A stretch of 64,000 nt of DNA, taken from the NCBI GenBank assembly GCA_050273025.1, contig CP158635.1:9176001-9240000 (forward strand). Direction: 5' to 3'. The DNA comes from Cenococcum geophilum (lineage: Eukaryota). Shown here in pieces: positions 5,401-52,400 of the stretch (its first letter is position 1; the number at the start of each line of letters is the position of its first letter). The notes under the pieces were generated by a model. It had not been told where the DNA came from, searched no databases, and was given only the letters and a program-made list of their open reading frames with translations. The position numbers and the translations under genes were made by a program.

Positions 5401-6499
5401 ATAATTCTTAGTTTTTAAGTTAAAAGATATTAGAAAGAATAAAGTTAAGATATTCTAATACTGGGGAGCTAGATATATAAATAACCGCTAAAGCCGTATT
5501 ATATTAAATTATGGGACTAGACCTACACTATAGAAGGCTCTTCTAATCTAGATTATACATTTAGCCTAGAAATTATTACCGCACGCATTATACTAATTTA
5601 TTATCGTGCGTTTGTGTATCTGCTTAGTGTTACCTAATACTTAACCTTTAAGGGGGTATATATGCGAGCTTAAAGAGATACTGCCAAATGCCATTTAATG
5701 TAAAAGGAAGGCGCTTATACGCCGGCAGGAGGCCTAATTTTATAGCTATATATTACATTTACACCTTAACTATAGTTAAATAATCGTTATAGCGCGGCCA
5801 GTACATTATAAACGACGACACTAAGTTAAGAATTAAGTGCATTAAGACTTAGCGATATTAAGGATTTTAATATATACAAAACCAAGACCTCTAAGACTAG
5901 AGACTTTATATTTATATTAGTATAAAAATGCTAACCATTAAATTAGATCCCTAACTAGCTTTTAAATTTACTAAATAAGAATCCCTTATTATATATAACT
6001 AGGCCCTCTTGTTACATAGGCTAAAAGAAATATTACTTTAAATGGCGATGCGGATAATCCTACCCTGCTACTAGATGGCTTTAATTTCGATAATATATCC
6101 TTATAATTACCTAGGAGGAAAGAGTTCGTATTAGCTTATAGTAGCTTATAGATAGTTAGCCAAACCAACTATAGTTTTTATCGAGCCTATACTCTCTATA
6201 GGAAGCATTAATTACCTATTATAAAATAATAAGAAAGGAGCTGGCTTTTATATCGCTATAATATTTGCTAGATATCTTTTTTATATCTCTTAGTATTTTA
6301 TATACTAAGCTCTTACTATATAGCGGAGATAGGTATAATTATAGTAGACTTAAGTGTAATTACACATTTCTAAAAATAATAAAACGGCGTGTCTTATTCT
6401 TAATAAGAATAATAGCTAAGGAACGAGTATTTATATTATAGTAAAGTAGCTATTATCTTTAGATATCCCGTGTAGGTCTAAAGGAAGAAGAATAACTAT

Positions 6500-16150: not shown

Positions 16151-17185
16151 CTATATAATATTACTTATCCTTAGGATATTTAAATAAAAGTGCTATTATT
16201 TTTAAGCGCTTTATAAGCTCTATAAATCCATACTAATAGAAAAATTATTTATTTAATATTGGGGGGTTTATTATAAGTATAAGTATATTAGGGTATTTTG
16301 CTAAAACTATTAGCTAATAGGTCTATTATCTAAGAGGCCTATTTGGCCTCTCCTCTATAGGTCTAGACTAAAGAAATCCTTATTGTTTTTCTGTTTTTTA
16401 GTTCTATTTTTGGTTTTCTAAATCCCTAATCCTAACTTTAAAATATTTTTTTATATTTAACGTTTAGTAAAAATAAGTAATAATGGTCTAATAAAATAAA
16501 TACCTTTTACGTCACCTCTTCTTTTATAGATATGTTTTAAACCCTTTTATAGTAAAGGGTAATCTACCTTATATTTGCTAGGCTGAGTTATAGGACTTAT
16601 ATCCTTAAAATATACTTTAATACTACTATATAGCCAGCTACTTAGATAGTAAGCCTTTTACTACCAGGTTTTTATTAATTATTTAGATCCTAATAATATG
16701 GAGCTAATATATATATCTCTCTTTGTCTAGAAATACCACTGCTTTTATTAATAAATAAATTACCACAGCGCTTTAAAAGTTTGGCATTATTATAGACTAT
16801 AGAATATAGATAAGAAGCGGAGTTTTATATTCTACTGGAATTAGGAGCTAATATTTAAGTAATGAACGATTTTAGTTAGACGCCGCTGTTACTGGCTACG
16901 AGTAACGGTTATAAGGTGGTGGTAAAGCTACTTCTTATATAGAATAACATCGATCTAAACTCCGAGGATAAATTTAGGGCTATACTACTATTATTAGCTA
17001 TAGAATATAGAAGTAAGGTAGTAGTAAAGCTATTACTTATATAGGATAACGTTAACCTAGATCCTAAGAGCGCTCTTAAAGATATACTACTATTATAGGC
17101 CGCGATAAACAGGTATAAGGGAGTAGTAAAGTTACTACTTATATAGGATAGTGTTAGCCTAAATCCTAAAGGCTTCTATAATTAA

Positions 17186-18164: not shown

Positions 18165-18240
18165 CTATAATTAAATACTATTATTAGCGGCTGCGAAACG
18201 CGGGTATAAGGTAATAGTAAAGCTATTGCTAATAAAGGAT

Positions 18241-18443
18241 TGTTAGGCCATAGAGACGCACTAGCCGTAACCGGCTTAGCGCAGGCGAGGCGCAGGCGAG
18301 ACGCCTACAAAACATAGTCGCCCCGTATTAGAGAACAGCAGAATTTAGTTCTATAGTTCTACTTCATTAAGAACCAGATACTCTTTGCATCCCGTTACTG
18401 TTGTTACGTTACTATATGCCCTAAGGACCTTAGCGTCCTAATA
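18241..18443 (+). repeat. 5' LTR of Gypsy #1
   Basis: TGTTAGGC...CCTAATA; colinear with 24643-24845, differing by transitions. Confidence 0.95.
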
Positions 18444-18579
18444 GTACTAAATTCTCATCCCTTTTTAGGGGTAGTAGCCTAATAACACAGCGGTCTACAA
18501 AGGCCACGACTATATAGCGGCAACCCTCTGTTAAGAAGACGACCTATATTTATTAACTACATCACAGCCCATCGACCTA

Positions 18580-21500
18580 ATGGCGAGACGCGGGCGTACT
18601 AGCGCAGTACGTACTACCGAGTCTAGGAATCAGCCCTAAAATAACATAGGTAAACCCTTATCCTGGACAGAACCGAAAGTTACGGGCGAAGGGGATATAT
18701 AGGAAGAAATACAACGGCTAGAGAACGAGAAGCTACAACTCCTAGAGCAAAGAAAACTATACTTGCTTAGGGAAGAGGTGGAAGTGCTAAGACGGCGTTA
18801 ACGCGATAAGGTAACGTCGACTCCCATTCCTAACCCATCTCTATAACCTTAAATAGTCCCATTAGAGTACTTAGGGGGTAGCCTAATGCATTCGAGCCTT
18901 AAGCGGAGGGCTACTGATATATTAGGCGCTCCGTTAAAACGGGCCGTTAAAATAAAGAAGATTGCTCCGTATTATGGTAAGACTATATAAAAGCACTAAG
19001 ACTTCCGCGACAGCTTAAAGCTAGCATTCCGCCTAAAGCGCGACGGCTTTATAGATAAGAATACTAAAGTCGCGTTTACTATATAATATATAAAGGGGAC
19101 CAACCGAACCCTTTAGCTATAGTACGAAGATAACTATTTAGACACGTAGTTTACCTAGGAGGAGCTTATAGAATTCCTACTTAACCAGATTAAAAGTCCT
19201 ATTAATTAAGAACTCTATATAGCCCTAACCTATTTAAGGGCAATACAGCGAACCGATTAACTAGTAAATAAGTTTACTGCTTACTTAACCTCCTTAGAAG
19301 CGTAAATTAACCCTCCTTATAATGCAAAGTATCTAATAATATATCTGTTCGCGAAGCTGCGGCTAGAGCTACGGGTTGCTATTACTAACTATTAAGAATT
19401 CCCTTAAACTCGAGACTAGCTAGTTTCCCTAGCTGCCCTATTAGAGGAAAACCAAAAGAGCGTAAGCGTCCTATAGGGTAGAAGCAATAGGCGCGCCGCA
19501 AACTTAAATACCAAAACTACCCAGTTAGGTAACTTAGGAAAAGTGGACTCTAAAACCACCGCCGGCGATTTAACGGCGGGGCGAAGCAATACCGCCGGGG
19601 GTTTAATATAGCCTAAAGGAAACTACACCAAATATAGGCAGCTAGGACATTAGTGGCGATAATATAAAGTGCAGCAATAGAATCAACTACCGCTTAGCAG
19701 CGTAAACGCTACCTCTATACTAGAAAAAGATAAGCGCCCTTAAGTACCCTTATAGCCCTAGGGCGTAAGCTCCTACTAGATTATAAGGAAGCTATTACTG
19801 TTTTAGGTAAAGTCCTCTTTAAGCAGACCTAGAAGGAGACCTTAGTAATGCTTAATATCAGTGCTAAAGTAAATATAGTTAACTAGCGATTTGCTATAGA
19901 GTGCAACTTTAAGATACTAAATGTAGAGCTACCTACCTACTCCTAGTTAAATAAGACTTAGGCATATTGCTATAAGGCCTATAAGGTACTACTAAGAATA
20001 AAGGACAGCTAGGGCAAGATTAGGGAAGTAACCCTTATCTACTATAGAATGGCTAATACATCCCCTACTGTTACCCTAGGTATACTAGGGTTAAAGAAGG
20101 CCCAACTTTTTATTAACTATAAGGCGAAGGCGTGGCGATAAAAGCTAAATGGCTCGTCCCTATTACTACAAACCCTTAAGGGTTTCGTAGAGTCTCTCCA
20201 AACAGAATTTAGGGTCTTTACCCTATTGACTTCTGGAGTAATACCTAGTAAGTAAGACGACGGCAGCTTACTAGTCCTCCCCCCATAGTTAAAGGAAGTT
20301 AACAATGTCTTCTCCTATAAGGAAGTAGGAAAGCTACCCTAACACTACTAAGGCGACTATGCTATTGACCTAGAAGAGGGATAGGAGGCCCTATATGGGC
20401 CGCTCTATAACCTCTTAGCCAAGGAGCTAGAAGTCCTAAGGGAGTACTTAGATAACGCCTTAGCTAAAGGCTAGATTTAACTAAGTACTAGTCCCACAGG
20501 GGTACCTATCCTCTTTATACCTAAAAAGGATAGGAAGTTGCGGCTCTATATAGACTATAGAGGCCTTAATAAGGTAATGATCAAGAATCGTCTTACACTA
20601 CTATTGATTAGTAAGACCTTAGACCGCTTAGCAGGTTTTAAGATCTTTACTAAGCTGGACCTAACGCATACGTATTACCGCCTTCGTATCCATTGTGGCG
20701 ATAAGTAGAAGATAGCATTCCGCACGCGCTACGGCCACTTTAAGTACTTAGTTTTGCCTTTTAGGCTAACTAATAGACTAGCGACCTTTTAGGGCTACAT
20801 TAATTGGGCCTTATTAGGACTGGTAGACGTCTTCTATATAGTCTACCTTAATAATATTCTAATTTTCTCTAAAAATCTAGAGGAATACTGGCGCTACGTA
20901 CTAGAAGTGCTATATAGGTTGCGATAATATTAACTATATATAAACCTTAAGAAGTGTAGGTTTAGTATACGAGAGGTTAAGTTCCTAGGATATATTATTA
21001 GTCCTAAAGGCGTAGTAATAGATCCTAGCTGGGTAGAAGCTATTACTAAGTAGAAGAGCCCTCAATCCTATAGGGATATTTAGGTCTTCTTAGGTTTTGC
21101 TAACTTCTATCATTAGTTTATTTATAAATACTCTGCCATTGCGAAGCCTATTACTAATCTCCTAAAAGAAGTAAAAAACGGCCGTAAAGCTAGGCCTTTT
21201 AATTGGCTAGAGGAGGCGGAGCAGGCAATACGCTGGCTCTGCGACGCCTTTACAACGGCGCCGCTTCTATAACACTACACGCCGGGCCTACCGACTTAGT
21301 TAGAGACTGATGCCTCTATATAAGGCCTAGCAGCAATTATATTATAGCTATTTAAAGATAGCCTTTAGTATCTAATAGCCTTCTAGTTTAGGAAGCTTTT
21401 GCTAGTAGAGCGTAATTATAAGACCTATAATTAGGAGCTACTAGCTATTATAGAGGCTTTTAAGCATTGGAGATACTATATTAAGGGGCTATTAAGCCGC

Positions 21501-23450
21501 CTAAAAGTGCTCTTAGATTATAATAATCTAAAGGGTTTTATAAAAGTAAAAGCCCTTAATAAACGGCAAGCTAGATAGGCTATAACCCTGGCTGCCTATA
21601 ACTTTATTATTAAGCATAGGGCGGGAAAAATAAACCCCGCAGACGCGCTGTTAAGGCGACCCCTAGGCGTAGAGGGTCCGCCAGAAGAAAACACCATGCT
21701 ACTACTACTCTAAAGGACTTTGGGAATATAGGGCCACTAACTTAAGGTAAAAGTCCTATTAGGTATATAGGAAAGCGAGCCTTCTATAGAGGTGTCGCTT
21801 TTATAGCTATAAGCTAGCGACCTAATAGAGGTACGCCTAAGCAATGTAGTATTATAGTTTAACTGGGTAACCGGCACGCATGCTGTTAAGTAGCGTGTAA
21901 TAAGGACCTAAGTTAGAGTAGCAAGCGCTTAAGAGAGTGCCTATAAGTTTAGTACGGAAATAGTCGTTAAGCTTATTAAAGGACTTTAAACTATAGATAA
22001 CTTTGTGCTACAAAAGCGCAGCGACAGCGTAGATACGGCGAGAAGCCGTTAATGCGCCTACTTGAAGCTAGTGTGGCAGTTTAATTCCGATGGACTACTT
22101 TGTCACCACGGGAGGCTATATATACCCCTAGACCCAGTAGTTCGTATAAAACTCCTATAGATCCACCATGATAATACCCTAGCTAGGCACTTTAGTAAGA
22201 AAAAGACTCTAGATTTACTTACGCGTAAGTACTACTGGCCTAGTATAAATGCGGACGTTGTGAGCTATATCTCTACCTATAATCTATGCTAGCGTATACG
22301 TGCGCCTTAATATCGCCCTTATAGCGAGCTCCAAGCGCTACCTTACCCAGATTAGCCGTGGTAGGAGATTATAATAGACTTTATTATAGGCCTACCGCCT
22401 AGTAGACGAGGCGATAAGGTATATAACGCGATATGCGTAATAGTTGACCGCTATACTAAGATGGCCTTATATCTGCCTATAGTAAAAACTATTACTATAA
22501 CCGAACTTGCGGATCTCTTCCTTAACGAAATAGTACGCCGTTTTGGAGCCCCTAGAGGGATTATATCTGATTACGGTAGTATCTTTACCAATAAGTTCTG
22601 GTCGGAGTTATGCTTTACTACGAAGATTAAATGTAGGCTAAGTACGGCCTTTTACCTATAAACGGACGGGTAAACAGAACGCCAGAACTAAACCCTAGAG
22701 TATTACCTTTATGTATTCTATGACGAGAAGTAGAGCAACTGGGTAGGCCTCTTATTGCTAGCCGAATTTGCCTATAATAATGCTAAACATAGCACGATAG
22801 GTATAAGCCTATTCTATACCTGCTATGGGTTTTACCTACGTCTAGAATACAAGGTTAAGGCAGACGATAGTAGTTCTATTCTAGCCGCCTTTAAGAGGAT
22901 TAAAAGAATATCCCTTAAACGCGAAGCGCTGGCGAAACGCTAAAAACACGCCGCTAAGGCGCAGGCGAAATACTATAATCGTTATTACTAACCACAGGTA
23001 TACAAAGTAGGGGATCTAGTCTTGCTATTAACTAAAAACCTTAAACTAAAAAGGCTAAGCAAGAAACTCACAGCACGTTTTATTGGACCTTTTAGTATAG
23101 CCAAACCAGTTAGAAAGTAAGCATACCGACTATATCTACCTACGTCTTACCGTATCCACCTAGTATTCCATATTAGCTTACTAGAGCTATATAAATAACG
23201 TAAGGGCACTACTAAAGACCCTCTACTAGGGCCTATTAAGCTAGACGATTAAACGGACTAAGAGGACCAATACGAGGTAGAAGAAGTACGTAGAAGGAAG
23301 GGACGTAACCAGACCCTACAGTACCTAGTTAAGTAGAAAGGATGGCTAAAAGAATATAACTAATAGGTCCCTATAAAGGACATTAATAAGGACGCAAAGG
23401 AGACGTATAATAGTTACTTTACACTAAGGGGTAAACGGAAGAGAAAGTAG
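18580..23450 (+). pseudogene. gag-pol of Gypsy #1
   Basis: RT VYLNNILIFS (YLDD) at ~20841; RNase H LETDAS at ~21301; integrase IISDYGSIFT in ORF-track fragment 22461-22661; chromodomain YEVEEV...YLVK*KGW at 23271-23350. Confidence 0.92.
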
Positions 23451-23559
23451 GCGGGAAAATAAAAAACTTTTAATTATAACTAAGATTACGCCCTACTAGC
23501 GGGGCGACAATAGAACGACGGCGGAGTGATAGCAGTACGCCGACAGAAATATAGATACT

Positions 23560-24347
23560 CTACAGCTCTAGCGAATCTTCCCTCTCCTCCCCTCCTTCTT
23601 TATCCTCCTCCTCCTCTCCCTCCTTATCCTCCTCCTCTTCCTCCTCCTTATCCTCCTTACCCTTATTCTCCTCCTTATCCCTTACAATAGGAGGCATATT
23701 GGCTTATAAGTACTATTAGTATATACTACGACGGCGAAACACCTGCGCTACAATACGTACTAAAGCGCGTATTACGTTAAGAATTCCTTTAAGAGTATAA
23801 CGGATGGCCTATAATTCCTGTACTTAGAGTAGGGGAAAGTCTTCGCCCTTTAGGCGCTAGCGGAGACCGTGCTTGGCGCTAGTGCGTACTAAGGCCTTAA
23901 TATCCTTCGTGAAGGACTTCTAGGCGGCAGCGACGCGAGCGTTAAGGTCAGCCGTGTCTCCGCTAGCAACCTACCGGCGCTTAGCCCTATTAATAAGGGC
24001 GAGTAGCTTATTTAGGCGGCTATAGAAGGCCTTAGGGACCTAGTCTATTAGCTATTAGAACCTAAACTAACGCATTTAGACTTACTGGTTGATATAACTT
24101 ATTTAGTTATTGGCAGTACCGGTAATTGCGGTTGGTCTGCTTGCCGTAGGTGGCCCGCCTAGTGGTGGCTATACGCTTAGTATAGCGGAGGTAGATTGGT
24201 TTTAGTAAGGCTGGGGGAGCGGCTTGCGAGTGATGTGGGAGCTTTAACGGTGTCTAGTAGGGTTAGTGACGGCTACAAGCTAGTATAAAGAATACTTATG
24301 GAAGGTTCACTAATAGGCGGACCGATAGCTTGGCGCTTGCGATTTAT
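23560..24347 (-). pseudogene. Antisense spliced accessory gene inside Gypsy #1: six-Cys cluster (inferred), helical region, acidic tail
   Basis: Introns 24254-24299 and 24040-24085 (GTAAGT-type donor, CTAAC/CTAAT branch, TAG acceptor) join a continuous frame. E/D-rich tail at 23575-23685; TATA-like CTATAAAG at ~24447-24454. Confidence 0.7.
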
Positions 24348-24642
24348 AGTTAATTAGAAGTTGTGAAGAAGGCGAGTCGCAGGCTAAACGAATTAAAATG
24401 GAATTGGAAGGGAAATCTAATATCCTACCTAGGTGGGAACTCCTACCTTTATAGATCTCTATAAGGTCCTATTATTACATTATTCTATTATTATATTGTC
24501 CTATTGTTATATTGTCCTATCGTTATATTGTCTAATTTACTTAAATTTATCAAAAACTTTTTATTTAGAGAAGGACAATAATAGCACTCCTATTATATAA
24601 TAGCGTCGGCTAAGGACAGCCGCTTAAGAACGGGGGGGTAAT

Positions 24643-24845
24643 TATTAGGCTATAGAGACGCACTGGCCGTAACCGGCTTAGCGCAGGCAAAGCGTAGGCG
24701 AGGCGCCTATAAAACGTAGTTGCCCCGCATCAAAGAACAGCAGAATTTAGTTCTATAGTTCTACTTCATCAAGAACCAGATACTCTTTATATCCCGTTAC
24801 TATTATTACGTTACTATATGCCCTAAGGACCTTGGCGTCCTAACA
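24643..24845 (+). repeat. 3' LTR of Gypsy #1
   Basis: TATTAGGC...CCTAACA followed by TSD AGGAT. Confidence 0.95.
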
Positions 24846-25599
24846 AGGATAGTATTAGCCTAAACTCTACTAATATTAAAGGTCGGACTCTACTTTTATA
24901 GGCTGCAGAGTGTGGATAAGAAGGGATAGTAAAGCTACTACTTGTATAGAAAGGCGTTAACTCTAATTTTAAGGATAGTAATAGTCGGACACTACTCTTA
25001 TAGGCTGCTTAATGGGTATATAAGACTGTAGTAAAACTATTACTTAAGGACGGCGTTAACGCGAAATCTAAGGATAAATATAGTAAAACGCCGTTTTGGT
25101 GGGCAGTGGAGGGCTAGTATAAGATAAAAGAAATATATTTATTAAATACGTGGCTAATAGGGTTAATAGATAAGATATATAAACTAGTGGTTTAGCTGCT
25201 GCTTAGAAAGAATAATGATATAGACTTTAATACTATATATACTTGACTTTTATTAAAAGACTAGTTACTAAGAAAGAGTAAAGGCTGTGGTTAACTTCCT
25301 TATGCTAAGTAAACTATTGTCGCTAACTCTAGTATTATTCTCTTCTTTATTTTCTTTCTACCTATCTTTATACTAGCTACCTCTTAATTTTATATTGTAT
25401 TAAGTTATAGGGGCGTAGCCTTATTTAAGAGATATCTGGCGATCTTTTAGTAGATCGCGTAAGAGCCCCGCTATATTAAAACTTTATACGTTATAAAACA
25501 AACTAAAACTAATAGGTATGATTAGTTATAGACCTAAAAACGCTGTATATCCACACTGTTTGTTAAAAATTCACCGCCTATTTCTATTACTTACTATCC

Positions 25600-28249: not shown

Positions 28250-31200
28250 TCTCACTAGTGTGTCGCCTATAGCTAGGCGGGGGGTAACTAGTCCCTAAGG
28301 GACCGGAATAGGGCATATCCTTTAGTGTCCTCCTATTAGATTTCGTATGCCGTTTAGAACTGTTAGAGGATTCCTTATTCTATAAGCCATTTTGCTGCTG
28401 CTTATAGGCCCCTATTTATAGATAGCATCTAGGTAATATTATTTGTGCCTACGCTAGTAAGTAGCTAGTCCCTTACTAAGCGGTAGCTGCAGAATAGTAG
28501 TATATGGCGTACTGACTGGGCAGGCTAACCGTATATGCATTAGGGTGTGGTATTTAAGACGTAGATACTTATAAGCTATACATTTAAGCCTAGGACCTCC
28601 ATCCTTAGTAGGAAGGCGGCCGTAGCTTTTACCCTTATTAGTCCTTTATATAGGGGGAGAGTTAGTATTAATTATAGGGTGTTCCATATAGCTGCGTCTT
28701 ATATTCTCGCTTCCTCCTTCTATCGTTGTTTCTACTTAAGGTCTACCTATCTTGCTATTAATATGGTGGACCTTTATCTATATTAATAGCCTCCTATCCT
28801 CTATTGTCGCCGTTATAGCGCTTTGCTAGTGTAGCTCTAGGTCTCTACCTAGTGGGCTAGTAACTCCTATATTTCCTTTTCTTTTTCTACTACTTATAGG
28901 TAGAGGGCTTCCTGGCTAGTATGTTTAGGCGTATCGCCCCTTTAAGGGGCCCTCGCTCCTTATATGTGTCTCGCTCTTTATATATATCTCGCTCCTTATA
29001 TATAGTTTAGCGTTTAGCGTATATTTTCTTCTACTGGCTGGCCTTATACTATAACTGCTCTTTATATTACAGTTATATTAATATATAAGTCTAGTGGTAA
29101 AACTACTGCTTTGCATTTTAGTGCTATGTGTGGTGTTTTCTTATAGGCCCCTATGGTTCTGCGTAGGTATTAGTTTTATAGCTTAGTTAGTAGCGCTAGG
29201 GAGCTTCTTACTAGCCCCGTACTATTTAGTCCTAGGCTCTATATCTAGGAGCCGTATAGCATTATTAGCTTTACTACAGCTATATATAGTAGGCGTGTGT
29301 ATCTAAAAGAGAGTCTCTAAGTTAAAGCAATAATTCTGTTACGGCTTAAATAAATACCTCTAAACCGAAGCTTAAACGAATGCTATATTACGAAGATACT
29401 AAGCTAAGGAGAAGGAAAAAAGGGGTCGCTAGGACCGATGTAAACAAATATATAGGGTAAGCCGCTAAGGCGCTAGCTTTGGGCGAGCTAATCGTAGGTT
29501 AGCAGAATATGGTAGAATTTAGCAGGTAACGTGTAATAGCGCCGTTACATCACCCCCCTCTTTAAAAGAAAGCCTGCCTTTAGGCTTAGTTAGAAATAGG
29601 GTAGCACTAGGCTTATAAATATAGGATTATAAAAATATAAGATAAGGAGATAAAGGGGATATAAGTACGTCCAGACTAAGTACAAAGGGCAATTATGGGC
29701 TAAGTGGAAGCACTAGGCTAGAAAGAGTAGCCGCTAAAAGTCTTAGCACAGATCTAACTAATTAGACAACTTTAACCGGCGGTCGAAGTTCCTAAATATC
29801 TAAAATTTTACAGTACTAACCGAAAACGGCAGAATATAGCAGAATTTGGCAGACAGCTATATTAGGGCTTTAGGGCGTTTTTGTCCCTATATTCTTCTGG
29901 TAACTTATTATCTTTATTATACTAGCATTCTATCTATTCGTCTAGGTACTTTAGGGGTTTAGGCGTATTAGGGTATTAGTTACAGAATTCTTTAAGCTTT
30001 TGGGGGCAGCCTATAAAGTTCCACGTAGAATACTAGGTTAGGTTAGGATCGTAGCCTTTCTATTAGATATGGTATTTTAGCGTTCCCTATACTATTTTGC
30101 ATACCAGTATTTCGTTAACCTCCTATTTATTATTACCGTTTACTTAAACTAGTAGGGGAGGCTCGTTCTTTTGTCTAGGTAATAGGTTATTTATAGCTTT
30201 CTATAACTTATCTGGCGAGAAAATAGGGTAAACCTTAATTGAATCTGGGAGCTTTATTTTGTACAAGTTGCCTATCTTCTTAAAAACCTTATATAGTCCT
30301 ACTATCTAGTAGTCTAGCTTACGGCTAGGTCGTTCAGTCTTTTAATTCCTTATAGTAACCCAAACTATATCGCTAGGGGCAAAATCGGGCTCTTGACGGT
30401 GTTTATTTGCCCGCTATTTTATTAACCTCTAAGCTTTTTCTAGGTTCTTACAGGCTACCGTCCAGGCCTCCTCTAATCGTTTAGCGTACTATTAGGCCTT
30501 AGTATAGAATAGCTTCTCTTATATAGTTTAGGGTTCTTTTAGCCTTTTCCAGTTAAAGCTTATACGGGGTAAATATCCCATTTCTAGCTAAATTAGGGCA
30601 AACCCTGTGGAGTTATAGGGTAGTGTTGCTTGCGCGTAGTCTATTAAGGGTAGTAGTTTAAACTAGTTGTCCTAGAAATAGTTAACAAAGGGCCTAAGCC
30701 TCTAGTCTAGGTACTAATTTATAATCTCTATCTAACCGTCTGTCTGGGGGTAATAAGCTATAAAAAGCTTTAGCTTAATGCCTAGGATCCGGGTAAACTT
30801 ATTCTAGAAGGCCGATATAAACTATAGCCTATAATTAGACATAATAGTATCTAGTGGTCTATAGATTTGGTAGACGTAATAGATATATAGCCAGGCTGCC
30901 TTTTTAGCATTAATGTTCTTATAATAGGGAATTAAGAATAGGCGTTTACTAAAGCGGTTAACTATAACTATAACTATATCGTATCCGTTATGGTCCCTAG
31001 GTAGTTTATAGAAGTCTATAAAGATATACTACTAAGGGCGCTTTAGTATTGGGAGTGGCTTAAGTAGTCCTAGGGTCTTATTCCGTGGGATTATAGCTCT
31101 CTAGTAGTCTTCGCAGTTCTATATATATTAATTAATATCCACAACCATTCTTAGCTAGTAGTAGCGGTAGTTAATAATTTTATAAGTTTTATTCTTACTA

Positions 31201-34200
31201 GGGTATGCCGTAGAGACTTAGCAATAAGCTTCGCGGATTAGTTCAGTCCATAGATTATTAACGTTAGGGACTATAAGCCGCTCCTAGTATAGGAGTAATC
31301 CTTCCTCCGTCTTAAAATCGGGGTCTCCCTTTATAGCTTATTCGCGGAGAGCCCTTAAGGCATTAGCCGTACGGTTTATAGTTAGGAGGCGGTTAATTAG
31401 CCCTATTAGCTTATCTAAAGACTCCTCCATTGGTGCTAGCTTATTTTACTATAAGTTTAGCTCCTTAAGGATCCGTAGGTTAAGCTGTTCTAGATAAAGG
31501 AGGGCGCGCGTCTAATATTAGGTCTTTAACTTATCCTAGGGCCCTATATCTTATTCTCTTTAGGTTAGAGTATTAGCCTTAAAGTTTTACTTACTAGAAC
31601 GATATATAATCGTAAAGAAGAATTAGGAGAGTATTTTAGCCTACTAGGCTTATTATCTAGTAAGCTGCTTTATAGTTATAAAGTACTCTAGGGCTTTATA
31701 ATCTATATATATCTTAATCTAGGAGTTTATACCTTTAAGCTTTGCGCGCTATTAGGAGAGTAATTAAATAATAGCTAATATTTCTTTATTGTATACTTTA
31801 TAGTTATACTTAGCTAGGTCTATTATTTTTAAAAAGAAAGCCATAGAGTACCATTTACTGTCTAGATATAACTGTAATAGGATTCCCGCTATAACCCTAT
31901 TAGAGGCGTCCGTTTCTAGCATTAATTTAAGGTCTAGGTTATAGTAATAAAGGATTAGGGAAGAGATAAGCCGATCCTTTATCTCTTTAAAGGCTTCTAT
32001 ATACCTATTATTAAAGATAAAGGGCGTGTCCTTCCTGGTTAGTTGTATAAGAGGTTTTACCGCAATTCCGTAGTTATAGATAAACTAGTAATAGAAGTTA
32101 TAAAAACTAAGGAAGGATTAGATTCCCTTTACTATATAAGGGGGCTTCTAGTTATAGATTGCCTCTACCTTTTTAGGGTTAACCTTAATTCCTTCTATAG
32201 TTATAATAAACCCAAGGTATTTTATATGTTTTACCTTAAACTCGCATTTTTTAATATTAACTTATAAGCCTACGTTCCGTAGTCTCTCCAGAACCTTCTT
32301 AATATAAACTTAATACTTAAGTTCGTTGTCTAAGTATATAAGAATATCATCTAGGTATACCGTGTAGAATTTGTTAAGGTAATTAAAAAGAACGTTATTT
32401 ATATACCTTTGGTACGTAGCTGGTCCGTTTATTAGTCTAAAAGAAAGAACTTTATATTTATAGGAACCATAACGGGTACGGAACGTTATTAAATCTTTAG
32501 ATGCAGGGTTTATCCTAATTTAGTAGAAAGCTTGGCGGATATTAAGTTTAGTAAAGATCTTTACCTAGCTTAGACGTGTAAGGGTCTCGTTAATTAAAGG
32601 AATAAGATACCAGTCCTTTTAAGTAATAGCGTTTAGCTTTTAATAGTTAATATAAAAATAAAGGCCTTTATTAGGCTTTTTTATAAATAAGATAGGGGAA
32701 GTAAAAGGGGCTTAACTTGGCTTGATAAACCCTTTATTTAGGTAATTAATTAAGTACTACTTTATTGCTTTTAGCTTATCCGTTAATTAATAGTAGAGGG
32801 GGCTATAGCCTAGCGAGTTATTGGCTTCTAATTAAATCTTATAATTATACGTCTAGTAGGGGGGTAACTTGTCTAAGGCCGCCTTTAAGAATGCATCCTT
32901 ATAGTTTATATAAATGGTAGGAAGGAGGCGTTTAACTAGTTCCTCGTTGGTTTCCTTAGCTGGCCTTTCCTCTCTATTATTAATAATTCGGTTAATTTTA
33001 TATATAGGCTTATTATAAAGATCTTATTGTCCTTTTAGTATATATTAAAGTAAAACGCTATAGCACTAATTACAGCGATGTTTATAGTGGGGGGGTTGCC
33101 TAATAATAGGAGCGTATATAACTTTAGGGACTTCCGGGGTACTAGCGTTATTATTACTTCTTTTAGCTCCTATTGTATCTTTTAAAGGTTATCCCTCATA
33201 TCCTATTAATACGTTCTTTTCCATACCGGTTAAATCCGTACAATTTAGACGTTATCTATATTACTATCTATCCCGCTTCTATACATAAAGTTTTTTTTAA
33301 ACGTAGCGCTTTAGGAGAGTATCTTTATCGGTATAGAGTTCTTTCTAGCTTTACGGCGGGCGTCTTCTTAGGTAAAGGCTAGGTTACAGGCCCTAACATC
33401 CTACTAGTATATAGGGTTAGCCCTTACGGCTAGTGTCTTATGGTTAGTTCGGATCTCCCTAACAAAGGAGGGCAACTTTGGTCTATCCTCCGGCTAGACA
33501 AACCGTCTTTATTACACGTTTAACTAAATATTAAAATAGGACATCTATTTTCGTCTAAGGATTATATTATAAAACCCTAGGTTTAGGATGCAAAAGGGAA
33601 TACTATATTGGCGTCGTCCGTTAAGAGCGATATGCAACTTTAAGACGTGGGTAATAGGCCGACTAGCTTGGCCGTTATAGCCTTTTACCTAAATAGGCTT
33701 CTCTAGTCGGATAGCTTCTGCATTTAGAAACTTGGTAACATTATTCACATAGGCAGTATTTATAAAGGCGAAGCTATTTACTCTAGTGTTAATAAGGGCT
33801 ATTATATTAACTCTATATCCATTTTAAGATACTATATATAGAACTATAAAATACTTTCCACCTATTAACTAACTAAGATTAATCTCTTTAAGATTAATAG
33901 GGTACCCTAGGGGGGAGTCTTTTCCTAGGGTTCTTCTTTTCCTAACTTATCGGACGTTTCTCCTTTCTCTATCTCCTTAATATCGCCTATATCCTTTAGC
34001 TCCAAGCAGGATAAGGTAAAGTAACCCTACTTATCGCAGTTATAGCATATAGCCGAGGCAGGGTTAATTAGAGTATTGCGGTAAATACTAATCAATAGCG
34101 TGGTATGTAACTGGTTAGGTAAGGCTTACTAGTGCGTAGTTATAACCGCCTTTGGTATAGGAGTAGTTATAACCTATCTTCCGGCTCTAGCTCCTATAGG

Positions 34201-37830: not shown

Positions 37831-40049
37831 GTTCGACATACCTGCTTATCCAGGCCTCTACCTCAGTCCTTAAGTAGCTTTCCCTTACTAAGCCTTAGGG
37901 CTTAGGGCTTTCCACAAGCAGTTAGCTGTTACCACCAATAATACGGGGATTTTCACCAGTTCTCTTGGGTATCTTATAATAGGATTAACCTAAGTACTAG
38001 TCTGCCCCCTAGCAGTCTATATAAGAGTCTCCTCCTAGAGTTGGTACGCTTTTGCACGGCTTAGGAGCCTTCTATAGCCTCTAGTTTTACGCCTTTTATC
38101 ATCGTTTCCGCCGGCACGGGCATAAGCTGCCATTTATAGGGGTCGCAACTCCCGTCTTACGCGCCTACTGACGTAATCCTATAAGGGCGTCGTAACTGCA
38201 TCCTGCAATGTGGAAGCCTTAGGTACCTTCTACGGTTAAGGCCAGCCAAGCCTCTCCCGCCTAAGTAACTCCTGTTTGCTCCTTAAGCGTACCTTACTAG
38301 CGTACTGCCCTAGTGAGCAGCCGTACTGCCCTGGCGAGCAGCCGTACTGCCCTAGCGAGCAGTCCTATCTATTAGTACACCGATACGCGTATCCGTTCTC
38401 TTGAGCCATGTAGTAGTCTCTTTAGCCAGGATGTAATCCTGCCTGCCTACTAGGTGCACTAGGGGTTAGAGCCCAGCTAAGGGGTAAGGTCCCTAGAGCT
38501 AGCAGTAGCTACTACGTACTACGCCCTGTAGGAGGCTAGTAGTAGTATAGGGGCGCAACACCCTATACTACTGCTAGTTCCCGTTTCGCGTTGCCTGTAA
38601 GAGTCTCCTTATAACAGGCCGACCGTGTCTTGTAGGAGGGGTTGTAGATGCTCGGTCCCGCGCCAGGCGACCTACTCTGCCCTCTCCTACTAACTAAGCT
38701 TGTGTCCCCCCTCCTTATAAGCTGGCCTGTGTCTCTAACTTATCGAGTCCTTGTACGACTGGCCTGTGTTTCCTTAGAGCCTTCCCCATATGTATGCGCA
38801 GGTTGCGTGCACCACGCCTATTAAGACCCTCCTGTGAGTCACCTGGTCGTCGAGCGCCATGGGGCCGTCGAAGCTGGCCTATGTTTCCGCTGCCTAGAGC
38901 TTTGCCCGTGTTTCCACCTCGTTAAGCCGTCTGGTCGCCGTCGCGTCGCTATCGCGTCGCTGTCGCGTCTGTCGTCCAGGTCGCGCGCACTACGCCTATT
39001 AAGACCCTCTTCTAAGTCACCTGGGTGTTGTATACCAGATAGGCCCTCGTAGAGGGGCCTTAACGAGTTTTTTAGGCAGGGCCCTAACAAGTTCTTCGCG
39101 GTGGCCTTAGGGCCTTAATAAGTTTTGTACAATTCTGCGACGCGTTAACCTTAACAAGTTCTTATAAAAAGAGGTTCCCTACGCCCTTGCCGTGTCCCTA
39201 TGGTTTCAGAGCTAGTGTAAGCCCAAGGGTGTCCTGTTATACGACTAGGACGCGTCTATATCGACTGGCTAGGTAATAAGGCCAGTTTCGGGCCTGGCTA
39301 CGAGCCAGGTAGTCGTATATTGGGTGGTTTTCGTATCCCAGTTTCCCTTAATGGCCCCCCTAGATAGTAGAGCAGGAGCCTCAGGCCGGGGCAGTAGGAC
39401 TCCTGGTGTTGTTGAGGGCGATGCTTTACTTAACCTAAATTATAATAAAAATATATTTATATCCCAGTTTCTAAATTTATTATTTTTATTTTTAGAATAT
39501 ATTCTATAAATAAAATCTAGATCTTGGTTAATGGATTTAGAATATAGTTTTTTAAATAACTTAACTTTATATATATATCTGCCAGCTAAGCCGTTTTTAC
39601 TAATTTCTTTATAAAGCTCTTTTACTCCCTTACTTACTTATAAGGCTCCCTTACTCTATTATAAAGCCTCCTTATTTCTATATAGTTGTTTAGGAAAAAT
39701 ATATATCTTTATCTTTATAAGAAGCCCCCTAAACTTTCTTAGACTACGACGCCTATACCCTAGACATAGAAGATACTACCTTATATAATTAACTAACTGG
39801 GTATTTAACTAAGGGGACGAAAATCGGTATACCGATTATTAATTACCTCTAGCGTATTAAAGTGTTCCTTAGGAAAGCCTAGCTAAGTTTAACTTTAACT
39901 AATCTTAAGTCGATATAGACGAAGAAGATTTTGTTAAATTAGAGCGGCTGTATAATTTAGCTAAGGTACCTATTAATTAAGGTATTTAGTAAGCTAAAAT
40001 TTAAGTAACGTAGTTAAGGTGTACTATAAAATTAACTTAATAGTAGCTA

Positions 40050-49468: not shown

Positions 49469-52400
49469 TATAACGGAACCTTATAGCAGGAACTACGATG
49501 GGCTTGTTATTAGGCTAGGTGTATAGATAATATAAATTAAAGTTAACAACGTAATAATAACTAGTGGAGTAGTTGCCTAATAGATTAACTCTAATTATAT
49601 TCTAAGAATTACTACAAGGAAGGAACTATCTAGGTAGGGACTAAAGGTCATTAAATATACAACCGTACTCCTATAAAAGCCTTCTTATATATAAGGTATA
49701 TAAGTTCCTCTTATTCCTTCTGTTTAATATATAGTATATTATATAACCTTAGTTACTATTCCTTATTACATAGTTCTATTGGCTCTATTCTAGACTATAC
49801 CTAAATTAACTAACTAGCTTCTTCTAACTTCTCTTCTAGTAGTTATAATATTGTACTTAAAGCGTCCGTAATACTATTTCCCTCCTTTTTATCTTTATCC
49901 TTAAAGATTCCTAGTATCTCTAGGTTATTTATTAGAGGTATAATATCCGTCTAATTAATTTAGTTAATATTGTTACTTATTATACCTAAAGCTTCTTCTT
50001 CTTTACATACCCAACATCGTGCTCACACTATTGCTGCAATATTATTACTTAGTAAAATTATACCGTCTTCGTGTTCTCGTTGTTTAAAAGAGGGGTTAGT
50101 TTACGTTATATTAGTAAGTCTATCCTTATAATAGCCGTCCTCTTATTTAAAGTGTACTAAAGCGAATATTTACTTATGCTATAACGTTTATTCTACTTCT
50201 AATGCTAAATATACGCGTCCTATTACTCTTAATAACCGTCTAGTTCCCTAATTAATTTATCTTAAGGTCTTATGTTTAATTTACTGCTACGCGGCTAGAT
50301 AGTAAACTATCTGTTGCTTTAGCTAAGCTAAAACGTTCTTATAATATAGAGTAGAAGGCCCTTAAAGCCCATATTACGGCGTTTACTTAGTTACTCTGTC
50401 TTAAGAAGGTTATAAAAAGGTTTATTTTAAGGAGTAGAAGCTTATAGAATAGGGTCTATAGGAACTTAGTGATAAAAGAACAGATTCTCTTCTATTTAAG
50501 AAGGAAATAGATATAAGTAGTTTAGCAACTGCTTTTTTTAAGTCCCCCTTAGGTAGCTTATTTTTTAGTAATCCTTTTTTATTAATACTGCCTAACCTAA
50601 TCTCTTCTAATACTTTTATACCTTTCCTATAGCGTTTTTTAGGTTCTCTAGTGGTTTCTAGATAATCTTATTATAGCCTATCTACTTTACCTTATACTAT
50701 ATTTTATTATTAATATCCTTATAATTAATAATCTTTAAAAGTTACTATTTATCTTCTTTTTGTCCTCTATATGTGTCTACTTTATAAACTAGTGGCTTAA
50801 TATTCCTATATACTGGTTTTAGTATTGCGATATACTATATAGGGTAGATTTTTATTTTAGCTAGTAGGTTTAACTTAAACGTAACTAGTAAAATCCTCTA
50901 AATAATTTTAAAAGGTCCTAGTCTAACGTAGTTTAACTTCTTACTTAGTTATTAACTCTTAAAATTTTTGTGTAGTAGCTATACTTTATCTCCCTCCTTA
51001 AGATCCAGTCCCTTAGATCTCTTAGTATTATAGTATCTTTTTATTCTTTTTTATACTTTCTTTACTAATTCTATAAAGTCTATATAAAGATTTATTAACG
51101 TCTTTATTCTTTCTTTAGCTATACTACTTATTTTCTTTACTTATTATAGTAATAATAATATTCTTAGCTTATACCCGTAATTTGCCTTAAATAGTAATAT
51201 ACCTATTCCTTTTTATAGTGTTATATTATATATAAACTATATAACTGGTAATAGTAATACCTAATTATTCTACGCGTAATTAATATAGTATCTTAGATAC
51301 TGTTCTAGTGTCTAATTTAGTTTCTCTATTTAACCGTCTGTCTGCGAATAATATACGGTAGAAGTTACTGCTTTAACTCCTTATTCCGCTAAGAATACCT
51401 CTTAAAATACTATTACAAATCTTAGATCTCTATCTAATATAATTTTACTTAGTACTCTATGTCTTATAAATACTTCTTTAATATAGATTTTAGTGATATC
51501 TTTTACTAATATTTCTTCTGTATATACTATAAAGTATCCCTACTTTATAAGCTTATCTACTATTACTAAAATTATATTATAATCTTATCCGGTAATAGGG
51601 TCTCTTAACTTTAGTAACTTAATAATAAAGTCCTATAATATAACCTCCTATAGTCTTTCTGGTATCTTAATAGGTTATAGCCCTCTATATAGCTTATACC
51701 TTATTAGTTTATTCCTTTAGCAATCTAGATATTCCTTTATAACTTTTTATACTAAACCCTAGATTTTATTAATAATATACTCCTTTTAAAGTCTTAACAC
51801 TAAGCCTATGGCTCTATTATGTCCTTAAGTTATTTCTTTATAGAAATCTTTTACAAATTGCTCTGCTATGCTTCTTAGGATATACCTTACTTCTTAATTT
51901 TTGTATATATTTATCTATAGATCTTCTAGCTATGCCTTTAGAATTCTTTATGCCTAAAAGCTCTCTAGTAACTTATAAACTTTCTCTAGTTCCTCTTAAG
52001 TTGCTATAATTTTTAGATAATTATATCTAATTAATCCATCTATATTTTTTAATAGTAAAGCCCCTAATAGCTTCTCGTTATTTTATAGTTTGGCTTTTTA
52101 ACTTAAAGCGTCTGCTCTTATATTATTTTTACCCTTAGTATACTAAATCTTAAAATAGTGTTCTATAAGCATTCCTACCTATTTAACCTATCTTTAGTTA
52201 AGTTTCTATATTATTAGGAATCTTATTAGGTTTTTATAATCTATTTTAACTATAAATAGTTTTTTTATACCTTATAAGAATGCTCTCTATTTTTTTAGTA
52301 CTATAACTATACCTAATAATTCCTTATTATAGATGTTATAGTTTAACTCTAATAGTATTATCTTCTAACTATAATATACTACTAGGTGCTATCTATTTTA

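Follow-up and report, generated by a model that had tools for sequence, protein, structure and literature searches.

LTR retrotransposons are usually viewed as gag-pol machines, and it is accessory genes that make retroviruses "complex". In HTLV-1 a spliced minus-strand gene close to the 3' LTR encodes HBZ, a small DNA-binding factor that dimerises and modulates proviral transcription. The closest precedent in fungi for the locus described here is brtn, an extra antisense gene of Boty-like elements (Zhao et al. 2011, Virology 417:248; cited in PMC7264820, PMC8365987, PMC4227169 and PMC5987419), which was the only fungal case of such a layout in the accessible text of the literature searched. 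As described by these citing papers, its home is a fungal chromodomain Gypsy element, whose copies carry it antisense in the interval separating pol from the 3' LTR. The original prediction, which took fungal Gypsy elements to encode normally only gag and pol, overlooked this case (PMC7264820 and PMC8365987). Apart from brtn, the literature searched, the coverage of which stopped at subscription papers, yielded no report of an antisense six-Cys gene carried by a Gypsy element. In plants, antisense reading frames placed between pol and the 3' LTR (aORF-3R) include Grande1 gene23, RIRE2, Retand ORF4 and PvRetro13 ORF2; the review describes them as present in most copies, conserved like the other proteins of the element and suspected of a nuclear role (PMC7264820). 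Transposons also carry small cysteine-rich Ascomycota proteins without known function: the class II transposon REP9 of Zymoseptoria tritici, for instance, bears DUF3716 (PF12511) proteins (PMC8232023).

The locus compared here with these systems lies in a window of 64,000 nucleotides of Cenococcum geophilum DNA, on the minus strand of a RIP-mutated Ty3/Gypsy chromovirus whose gag-pol is degraded and carries many stops (Table 1). It shares with brtn, as described in the citing papers, the type of carrier, the position, the orientation and the presence in the copies of its family. The likeness is one of layout; three introns, a six-Cys module and quantified purifying selection are shown in addition for the present gene. 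No BRTN-named or Botrytis protein appeared among the 19 of 21 phmmer matches whose names were checked. Position and orientation are also those of the plant aORF-3R frames as reviewed: the present gene is antisense, is flanked by the pol stop and the polypurine tract, was found in every one of the aligned loci (see below) and is conserved like the proteins of the element. It differs from them in kingdom and in its short fungal introns; the likeness to them is one of layout and conservation, and the review does not call the plant proteins six-Cys. The DUF3716 carrier REP9 belongs to another element class than Gypsy. One ESM Atlas cluster at score 0.78 had DUF3716 on 28% of its members, while exons 2 and 3 of the least mutated sister copy (L001) and 15 relatives gave no match to PF12511 at E ≤ 10.

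Table 1. Features of the element and of the antisense gene, in positions of the window.
Feature	Position	Strand	Description
Target-site duplication, left	18236-18240		AGGAT, 5 bp, adjoins 5' LTR
5' LTR	18241-18443	+	203 nt; begins TGTTAGG, RIP-mutated end CCTAATA
gag-pol, degraded	18444-23450	+	RVT_1 20481-20708, rve 22365-22661, chromodomain-like tail 23271-23447
pol stop codon	23448-23450	+	after chromodomain-like tail
Antisense gene CDS	24347-23560	-	four exons, three introns; between pol stop 23450 and polypurine tract 24626
Exon 4	23560-23703	-	acidic E/D-rich tail; stop codon 23562-23560
Intron 3	23704-23760	-	57 nt; intact copies GTACGT..CTAAC..AG; here acceptor AA, branch CTAAT
Exon 3	23761-24039	-	93 codons; helical domain, ends EGILDV.R in relatives
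Intron 2	24040-24085	-	46 nt; GTAAGT..GCTAAT..TAG
Exon 2	24086-24253	-	56 codons; six-cysteine module; one in-frame TAA here
Cys codons of exon 2 (first bases)	24193, 24184, 24148, 24124, 24115, 24094	-	here TAC, TAT, TAC, TAC, TGC, TAT
Intron 1	24254-24299	-	46 nt; donor GT here AT; branch CTAAC, acceptor TAG
Exon 1	24300-24347	-	16 codons; start ATG here ATA
16-nt tandem repeat	24466-24532	none	4.2 copies; 120-185 nt upstream of antisense start
Polypurine tract	24626-24638	+	AAGAACGGGGGGG; conserved
3' LTR	24643-24845	+	203 nt
Target-site duplication, right	24846-24850		AGGAT, 5 bp, adjoins 3' LTR

The carrier has the hallmarks of a chromovirus, namely LTR ends TG..CA, a 5-bp target-site duplication, a polypurine tract and the pol domain order reverse transcriptase, integrase, chromodomain. 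The two LTRs are 91% identical, all their differences are transitions, and they become identical after collapsing transitions. Pfam recognised RVT_1 (E = 4.8e-4) and rve (E = 2.3e-8) in the degraded pol, and Chromo with E = 0.044 only, on a 21-aa piece. An integrase and a chromodomain-like end are visible in the open pol tail of L001, to which the stretch 21894-23423 of the window is 78% identical (tblastn). The pol stop is separated from the polypurine tract by 1,175 nt of extra DNA, in line with the roughly 1.2 kb first claimed. Within the window, BLASTN of the element matched the LTR pair only, a transition-collapsed BLAST added short noise to the LTRs, and tblastn with homologues gave no second copy of the gene. 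No intact gag-pol was found in the 16 loci of the family with both LTRs, where the longest sense frame had 261 aa.

The splicing proposed from the letters of the window was largely recovered. Both 46-nt introns were located, the third, regarded as probable at about 23703-23760, was found with 57 nt, and the one Cys and five TAY codons at 24092-24193 matched their proposed x2-x11-x7-x2-x6 spacing exactly. What had been read as a TATA-like box (ACTATAAAT, about 24350-24342) is instead the RIP-mutated context of the start codon, which in the least mutated copy reads ACCATGAAT. The spliced frame, claimed to be continuous, is interrupted in the window copy by six in-frame stops, five of them in exon 3, each a TAG or TAA where intact copies read CAG or CAA; continuity holds for two sister copies, L001 and L031. 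With these stops, an ATA start and one of six Cys kept, the antisense gene of the window is a RIP-killed pseudogene. The intron-like pattern of donor, branch and acceptor is found 12 times in the window, counting both strands, and 13.4 times on average in 50 Markov-1 simulations; since the signals of the window alone are not above chance, the proof of the gene lies in its sister copies. On that comparison it is almost certain that the gene is real, and dead in this copy.

Sister copies were taken from metagenome contigs, and 30 loci were aligned with the window to give a 31-copy set. Colinear alignment from the LTR to the pol tail was obtained for 34 of 35 loci; L035, a bacterial contig matching by one peptide pattern, was dropped. 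Four partial or rearranged loci (L017, L020, L032 and L034) were excluded from the counts, and these carry the gene too, at 58-98% amino-acid identity. All 30 aligned loci contained the antisense gene. In three DNA runs the stretch 22900-24900 of the window was wholly covered by contig pieces (3,910, 3,037 and 3,347 pieces, 80-99% likeness), with a depth over the extra region like that over the pol tail and with differences that were nearly all transitions.

L001 (GC 0.55, TpA/ApT 1.16) starts with ATG and reads through 211 codons without a stop, with six Cys and three introns of the form GT..CTAAC..AG. L031 is also fully intact, with six Cys and 205 codons. Among the 31 copies the start codon is ATG in 9 and ATA in 22, the donor GT of introns 1, 2 and 3 is kept in 24, 31 and 29, respectively, and the acceptor AG in 29, 28 and 29. 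Branch sites read CTAAC or CTAAT in all copies, and the splice-site deviations are all of RIP type. The six Cys sites contain TGY or TAY exclusively, with TGY in 22, 10, 20, 13, 23 and 26 copies for sites 1 to 6, as expected from the proposal that the TAY codons derive from TGY by RIP. The central claim of a spliced antisense accessory gene inside a Gypsy element is thus borne out by intact frames and conserved splice sites: the six proposed codons go back to cysteine rather than Tyr or His, the frame and its splicing are conserved, and the segment is not unique to the window copy.

The spliced length is a multiple of three in all 31 copies. Columns variable by transversion number 10, 5 and 30 at codon positions 1, 2 and 3, with 211 columns each (chi-square p = 8.6e-6), and the same bias appears in exons 1 to 4, each in its own phase (2/0/3, 2/1/8, 4/3/8 and 2/1/11). 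Exons 1-3 show no length change, exon 4 differs in length by multiples of three only, and indels that are not multiples of three are confined to intron 2 (+1 in 10 copies, +5 in one). Comparison of the three least mutated copies gives a dN/dS of 0.09-0.20, as against 0.30-0.38 for the last 83 codons of pol, these values being approximate because RIP biases substitution patterns. Purifying selection preserved the frame as at least three subfamilies of the element diverged. In the unspliced L001 sequence every frame on both strands is closed (2-16 stops) and codon periodicity is blurred.

The explanation preferred here, and considered very probable, is that the minus strand from 24347 to 23560 is a RIP-killed copy of an accessory gene of the family, kept by selection and most likely encoding a protein that serves the element. 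Introns antisense to the genomic RNA survive retrotransposition: since they lie opposite the genomic-RNA strand, splicing of this RNA cannot remove them and they are copied at each retrotransposition. Since selection on a retrotransposon gene works via transposition success, the protein most likely serves the element. In the mechanism preferred here, transcription of the gene would start in the 278-nt spacer or on the antisense face of the 3' LTR. The product would be a nuclear regulator that binds zinc and, probably as a dimer, DNA, with an acidic tail for activation, and may act on the element's own transcription, either as transactivator or as copy-number brake. Such a mechanism would work like that of the antisense-encoded HBZ, a functional analogy with a bZIP protein of a vertebrate retrovirus that has no homology to the present protein.

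The product of the intact copies has 205-211 residues and is composed of a short basic N-terminus, a six-Cys module, a helical domain of about 90 residues and an acidic E/D tail. The spacing of the module is CX2CX11CX7CX2CX6C, with X10 for the second gap in three relatives (P0035, P0038 and P0040). In the Gal4-type consensus, CX2CX6CX5-12CX2CX6-8C, the second gap is invariantly 6, and small Gal4-like activators have their Cys module first, a helical or coiled-coil part next and an acidic tail last. The module resembles PF00172 in its six Cys, arranged as two CX2C-containing halves of which the second (CX2CX6C) is canonical, in the basic residues after the first CX2C, and in the helical or coiled-coil stretch and the acidic end that come after it. 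The difference lies in the first loop, whose 10-11 residues in place of 6 do not match the Zn2Cys6 consensus, and in the insignificance of the family and fold matches. Therefore, of the Zn2Cys6-like cluster originally claimed, the six conserved Cys stand, while the spacing is non-canonical, a significant PF00172 match is missing and the fold leads are weak.

Pfam assigned no family to four ORF pieces of the window or to six read-through frames of the extra region. The intact L001 exons had no match even at E ≤ 10, PF00172 included, and Zn_clus (PF00172) matched 1 of 15 relatives, with E = 2.2 and below the gathering score. Sequence searches of PDB, run with one protein and with two profiles, returned nothing meaningful; the best hit (E = 0.0049) was to part of a mitochondrial ribosomal protein. 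In the AlphaFold model of P0035 (mean pLDDT 85), short helices at both CxxC pairs (23-26 and 46-51) precede three long helices. In Foldseek against PDB, 8 of its best 50 rows were Zn2Cys6 DNA-binding domains (Pho7, PPR1, Leu3, Put3 and Gal4; E 1.3-6.4, insignificant), and 5 of 10 ESM Atlas structure rows were Zn(2)-C6 factor clusters (TM 0.23-0.34, insignificant). Exon 2 of L001 folded alone gave a poor model (pLDDT 65.9), with seven weak Foldseek rows (RING, zinc ribbon, C1 and nuclear-receptor DBD) and none for Zn2Cys6. VIA-align of the P0035 model returned long-helix or coiled-coil rows only (Z about 6, uninformative). In L001 a CCG-N4-CGG occurs once within the LTR and a CGG-N10-CCG once next to the polypurine tract; single occurrences of this kind are compatible with chance. 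The six Cys probably bind zinc; that the product is a DNA-binding transcription regulator is plausible at somewhat less than even chances, and true membership in the Gal4-type Zn2Cys6 family appears doubtful.

A selected gene could also encode a protein other than a transcription factor: a zinc-knuckle-like binder of nucleic acid or chromatin with an acidic tail, which might serve as a chaperone, a histone or nucleosome binder shielding new insertions from silencing, or a factor controlling packaging or copy number. This is a possibility to be taken seriously, although not a probable one. The missing sequence link to Zn2Cys6 in Pfam and PDB and the resemblance of the L001 exon 2 model to other zinc modules speak for it, and histone chaperones often have long acidic tails. 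On the other hand, the better of the two models, that of P0035, and the Atlas lean to Zn2Cys6 DNA-binding domains, and the domain order is that of a small Gal4-like activator. Plant antisense aORF proteins have no assigned function, and some of them are nuclear (PMC7264820), which fits a binder of this kind as well.

The protein also has distant homologues. A phmmer search with exon 3 against 1.84 billion representatives gave 21 matches at E ≤ 0.001; among the 19 whose names were checked, two carried a species name, both of Dothideomycetes. The Cys module and the helical domain are contiguous in 4 of 13 retrieved homologues (P0035, P0038, P0040 and P0045), at 33-44% identity, and in all four the joint (..C-x2-VP..) coincides with the predicted exon 2/3 junction. 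Two of these contiguous homologues are annotated as hypothetical proteins of Zopfia rhizophila (KAF2175606.1) and Clathrospora elynae (KAF1936232.1), and the six Cys are also found in P0035 and P0038. Three ESM Atlas clusters from Ascomycota, with 157, 77 and 63 members, resemble the antisense-gene family. A profile search with the homologue alignment A3 re-found four input proteins and nothing new, and longer forms of exon 3, spliced or fused, were absent among 1,606 candidates, which is weak evidence.

Annotation of homologues as ordinary hypothetical genes in two Dothideomycete genomes, together with the Atlas clusters that resemble the family, would suit a captured host gene that rides as a passenger, without a role for the element, and acts on host genes or not at all. 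This is improbable: purifying selection in at least three element subfamilies is hard to explain unless success in transposition depends on the protein, and the gene is present in every aligned locus. If the gene instead serves the element, as preferred here, one may go further and imagine, tentatively and against the likelier course, that small Gal4-like transcription factors of their own are encoded by many LTR retrotransposons of Ascomycota, each with an expanded-loop zinc cluster, dimerising helices and an acidic tail for activation. Antisense placement would let the introns outlast reverse transcription; the factor would control the LTR or reprogramme host genes, and would be the fungal counterpart of retroviral transactivators such as HBZ or Tas, the three Atlas clusters then being one widespread, unnamed transposon-borne family.

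Sequence comparison thus gives a Gypsy family that has maintained an intron-bearing antisense gene for a predicted cysteine-rich, acidic-tailed protein, and the comparative proof is unusually clean, with intact copies, exon-respecting indels, third-position bias and junction-spanning homologues across species. If the protein regulates transcription or silencing, it would open a direct route to studying how genome defence is evaded or tuned by elements in RIP-competent fungi, would account for a set of Ascomycota "hypothetical proteins", and would warn annotators that such genes are masked along with repeats. For the window itself the practical message is modest, the copy being a dead pseudogene.

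The absence of any gene, with the frame and the splice-like motifs as chance features of a long non-coding 3' region, is very unlikely. It would agree with the chance rate of intron-like motifs in the window, with the six stops of the window frame and with the only RNA run examined (X21, about 12% read), whose 40 reads showed no splice joints; 38 of these were under 90% alike and 34 fitted partly, mostly on the low-complexity tail and the LTR. This reading is already contradicted by the intact frames of L031 and L001, the third-position bias, the indels, the dN/dS and the homologues that cross the exon junction. That the region encodes an env-like or additional pol domain in the sense direction, with the antisense frame as its shadow, is the least credible reading of all, since the open sense stretches of L001 over the region (179, 107, 152 and 159 codons, one with third positions in common with exon 3 as worked out by hand) are set against sense frames that are all interrupted across the region (2-6 stops), exon 2 variable positions that coincide with first codon positions in the sense frame overlapping it, no Pfam match in any sense frame, and homologues that all match the antisense product.

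Upstream of the antisense start, the 16-nt tandem repeat is a candidate promoter element of the gene, and its copy number differs between element copies.

The window is AT-rich and TpA-rich except for a block of about 40–44% GC at 17–25 kb, inside which the LTRs of a plus-strand element are recognised as a direct repeat of 203 nt. The LTR pair is 91% identical and becomes fully identical after collapsing transitions, a pattern characteristic of repeat-induced point mutation (RIP). The LTR ends are TG..CA, with the CA of the 5′ copy mutated to TA, and the pentamer AGGAT flanks the element on either side. The gag-pol region is full of stops, with matches to RVT_1 and rve, and is followed by 1,175 nt up to the polypurine tract, in agreement with the ~1.2 kb of extra DNA first noticed between the chromodomain stop and this tract.

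The original prediction placed a spliced gene on the minus strand of this extra DNA. The minus-strand codons at 24092–24193 read TAC, TAT, TAC, TAC, TGC and TAT with the claimed spacing, and donor-, branch- and acceptor-like motifs are found at the claimed positions. By themselves, the intron-like signals of the window are no better than chance, since the pattern occurs 12 times against 13.4 in simulations. The spliced frame, described as continuous, contains six in-frame stops, and no Pfam family was matched in any of the six window frames. The window copy of the antisense gene is a pseudogene. Compared with the least mutated copy (locus L001), its coding sequence (24347–23560) has 92 differences, 84 of them G>A or C>T (46 in TpG/CpA and 30 in CpG context); the latter count indicates that CpG sites, too, mutate often in this genome.

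Contigs of three DNA runs span all of 22900–24900 in thousands of pieces with 80–99% likeness, and the depth over the extra region is similar to that over the pol tail; therefore, the extra segment belongs to a high-copy family. These contigs differ from the window almost exclusively by transitions. The translated minus frame 24039–23719, with stops set to X, had 28 matches to short predicted proteins (E ≤ 0.01, 32 candidates), which present Gln at window TAG/TAA and D, E, G and H at window N, K, S and Y. A search of metagenome contigs with one of them, P0003, gave 35 loci. The segment is not unique to the window copy, as 34/35 loci are colinear with 24845–23200, from LTR to pol tail; L035 was a bacterial false positive. 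The alignment comprised the 30 gene-covering loci and the window (31 copies), with L017, L020, L032 and L034 excluded as partial or rearranged. Gag-pol is intact in none of the 16 loci having both LTRs. L001 (GC 0.55, TpA/ApT 1.16) has a pol tail that stays open for 520 codons, at which point the contig ends.

Features of the element and of its antisense gene (window coordinates; sequence details of the gene from L001)
Feature	Position	Strand	Details
5′ LTR	18241-18443	+	203-nt direct repeat
Chromodomain-like pol tail	ends 23448-23450	+	closes gag-pol
Exon 4	23703-23560	-	46 codons; acidic, TAG at end
Intron 3	23760-23704	-	57 nt; GTACGT..GCTAAC..TAG
Exon 3	24039-23761	-	93 codons; helical domain
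Intron 2	24085-24040	-	46 nt; GTAAGT..GCTAAC..TAG
Exon 2	24253-24086	-	56 codons; ICLRCAKRVATAGRATCGKQANRNCGYCRRLNKSC
Intron 1	24299-24254	-	46 nt; GTAAGT..GCTAAC..CTAG
Exon 1	24347-24300	-	16 codons; ATG start, in-frame stop 9 nt upstream
Polypurine tract	24626-24638	+	AAGAACGGGGGGG; precedes 3′ LTR
3′ LTR	24643-24845	+	203-nt direct repeat

The sister copies confirmed a spliced antisense accessory gene of a Gypsy element, and the core of the original inference is right. Fully intact genes were found in L001 (211 codons) and L031 (205 codons); two further copies are stop-free, but with the start mutated or Cys codons lost. The predicted interval 23560–24347 is exactly the coding sequence, while the supposed TATA-like box turned out to be the start codon context, ACCATGAAT changed to ACTATAAAT. 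The spliced length is divisible by three in all 31 copies, with GT donors in 24, 31 and 29 and AG acceptors in 29, 28 and 29 of them for introns 1, 2 and 3, and CTAAC or CTAAT branch sites in every copy. The start codon is ATG in 9/31 and ATA in the others. The six Cys sites read exclusively TGY or TAY (TGY in 22, 10, 20, 13, 23 and 26 of the 31 copies, in order). Since RIP changes TpG to TpA, Cys is the ancestral state at these sites, and the TAY codons descend from TGY as proposed.

Purifying selection keeps this antisense, intron-bearing gene in the retrotransposon family. Transversions are not produced by RIP, and the transversion-variable columns at codon positions 1/2/3 were 10/5/30 (p = 8.6 × 10−6), with the third-position bias visible in every exon in its own phase. 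Across the 31 copies, exons 1–3 are constant in length and any length change in exon 4 is a multiple of three; intron 2 has one additional base in ten copies and five in another. In the unspliced L001 control, neither strand has an open frame and the codon periodicity is blurred. The dN/dS, a measure named in the original prediction, was 0.09–0.20 for the three least mutated copies, which represent three subfamilies by transversion distance, and it was higher (0.30–0.38) in the last 83 pol codons.

A phmmer search with L001 exon 3 against 1.84 billion representatives gave 21 matches at E ≤ 0.001, with identity down to 31–45%. Four of the 13 fetched matches (P0035, P0038, P0040 and P0045) have a Cys module ahead of the helical domain, with the pattern CX2CX10CX7-8CX2CX6(C/Y) in three and longer loops in P0045. 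The predicted exon 2/3 junction coincides with the point where module and domain meet, ..C-x-x-VP-x-x-F.., and two more relatives start shortly before it; the distant relatives confirm the gene model independently. Most relatives diverge immediately past the conserved EGILDV.R-x-x-V, as would be expected if intron 3 were in the same place and read through by intron-ignoring gene callers. P0035 is annotated as a hypothetical protein in Zopfia rhizophila, as is P0040 in Clathrospora elynae, and three ESM Atlas clusters of hypothetical proteins from Ascomycota (157, 77 and 63 members) are P0035-like.

By sequence, the protein fits no described family: the intact L001 exons gave no Pfam match at E ≤ 10, Zn_clus was found in 1/15 relatives (E = 2.2) and DUF3716 in 0/15, and no meaningful PDB match was obtained. 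The AlphaFold model of P0035, a confident one (mean pLDDT 85), shows a short helix at each of two CX2C pairs, then three long helices. Foldseek against the PDB gave no significant match; Zn2Cys6 DNA-binding domains (Pho7, PPR1, Leu3, Put3, Gal4) were 8 of the best 50 rows, all insignificant, with E = 1.3 and rmsd 2.0 over 40 columns for Pho7. Among ESM Atlas structure rows, 5/10 were Zn(2)-C6 factor clusters (TM 0.23–0.34). L001 exon 2 modelled alone was poor (pLDDT 65.9) and matched other zinc modules instead. The six-cysteine module probably binds zinc and may be related to the Zn2Cys6 cluster as a form with an expanded loop. It is not filed in that family because of the missing sequence match, the insignificant fold rows and a first loop of 10–11 residues, whereas Gal4-type clusters have six. 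The six cysteines of the predicted Zn2Cys6-like cluster stand; any family assignment would be tentative.

According to PMC7264820, the plant elements Grande1, RIRE2, Retand and PvRetro13 carry an additional antisense gene in the interval from pol to the 3′ LTR. PMC7264820, PMC8365987, PMC4227169 and PMC5987419 give brtn of Boty-like elements (Botrytis and Sclerotinia) as a fungal counterpart, likewise antisense and between pol and the 3′ LTR, and the literature searched contained no other description. Of the 21 HMMER matches, 19 were looked up by name, and none of these was called BRTN. The present gene is a well-proven new case of a known, little-studied gene type.

Splicing cannot take introns out of the genomic RNA when they lie antisense to it, so they last through retrotransposition. 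Selection on a gene found only in element copies would act through transposition, so the product presumably serves the element. Tentatively, it could regulate transcription of the element as a small, dimeric DNA-binding protein of the nucleus, given the order of its parts (a basic N-terminus, then the Cys module, long helices and an acidic tail), its convergence with pol (109 nt between both stops) and the 278-nt spacer ahead of its start, which contains a 16-nt tandem repeat. The main rival, a product binding chromatin or nucleic acid, seems somewhat less likely. For a transcriptional regulator, candidate sites in L001 are one CCG-N4-CGG in the LTR (1796–1809), most commonly AGCCGGTTACGGCC (10/31 copies, the remaining forms differing mostly by transitions), and one CGG-N10-CCG beside the polypurine tract (1852–1867). 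In their general form, both are like the sites of zinc-cluster factors, but as single occurrences that could be due to chance they are leads only. No expression was seen in one RNA run, about 12% of which was read, with 40 poorly fitting reads and no splice joints.

The 16-nt repeat (24466–24532, 4.2 copies in the window) lies 120–185 nt ahead of the start codon of the antisense gene and may act as a promoter or binding element; L001 (at about 1940–1990), L006 and L031 have fewer copies. In L031, a third LTR copy (5628–5830) immediately upstream of the element points to a solo LTR or to copies arranged in tandem or nested in one another. The host site of the window element is another repeat of 102-nt tandem units, running on both flanks (16912–17169 and 24873–25084). 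Two more Gypsy-type pol remnants are on the minus strand (30219–31427 and 50640–51722), with 26–27% identity to the L001 pol tail and no detectable accessory-gene homologue nearby. An isolated GC-rich island at 38001–39300 (GC 0.55 vs. ~0.30–0.37 around) has a longest frame of ≤91 codons.
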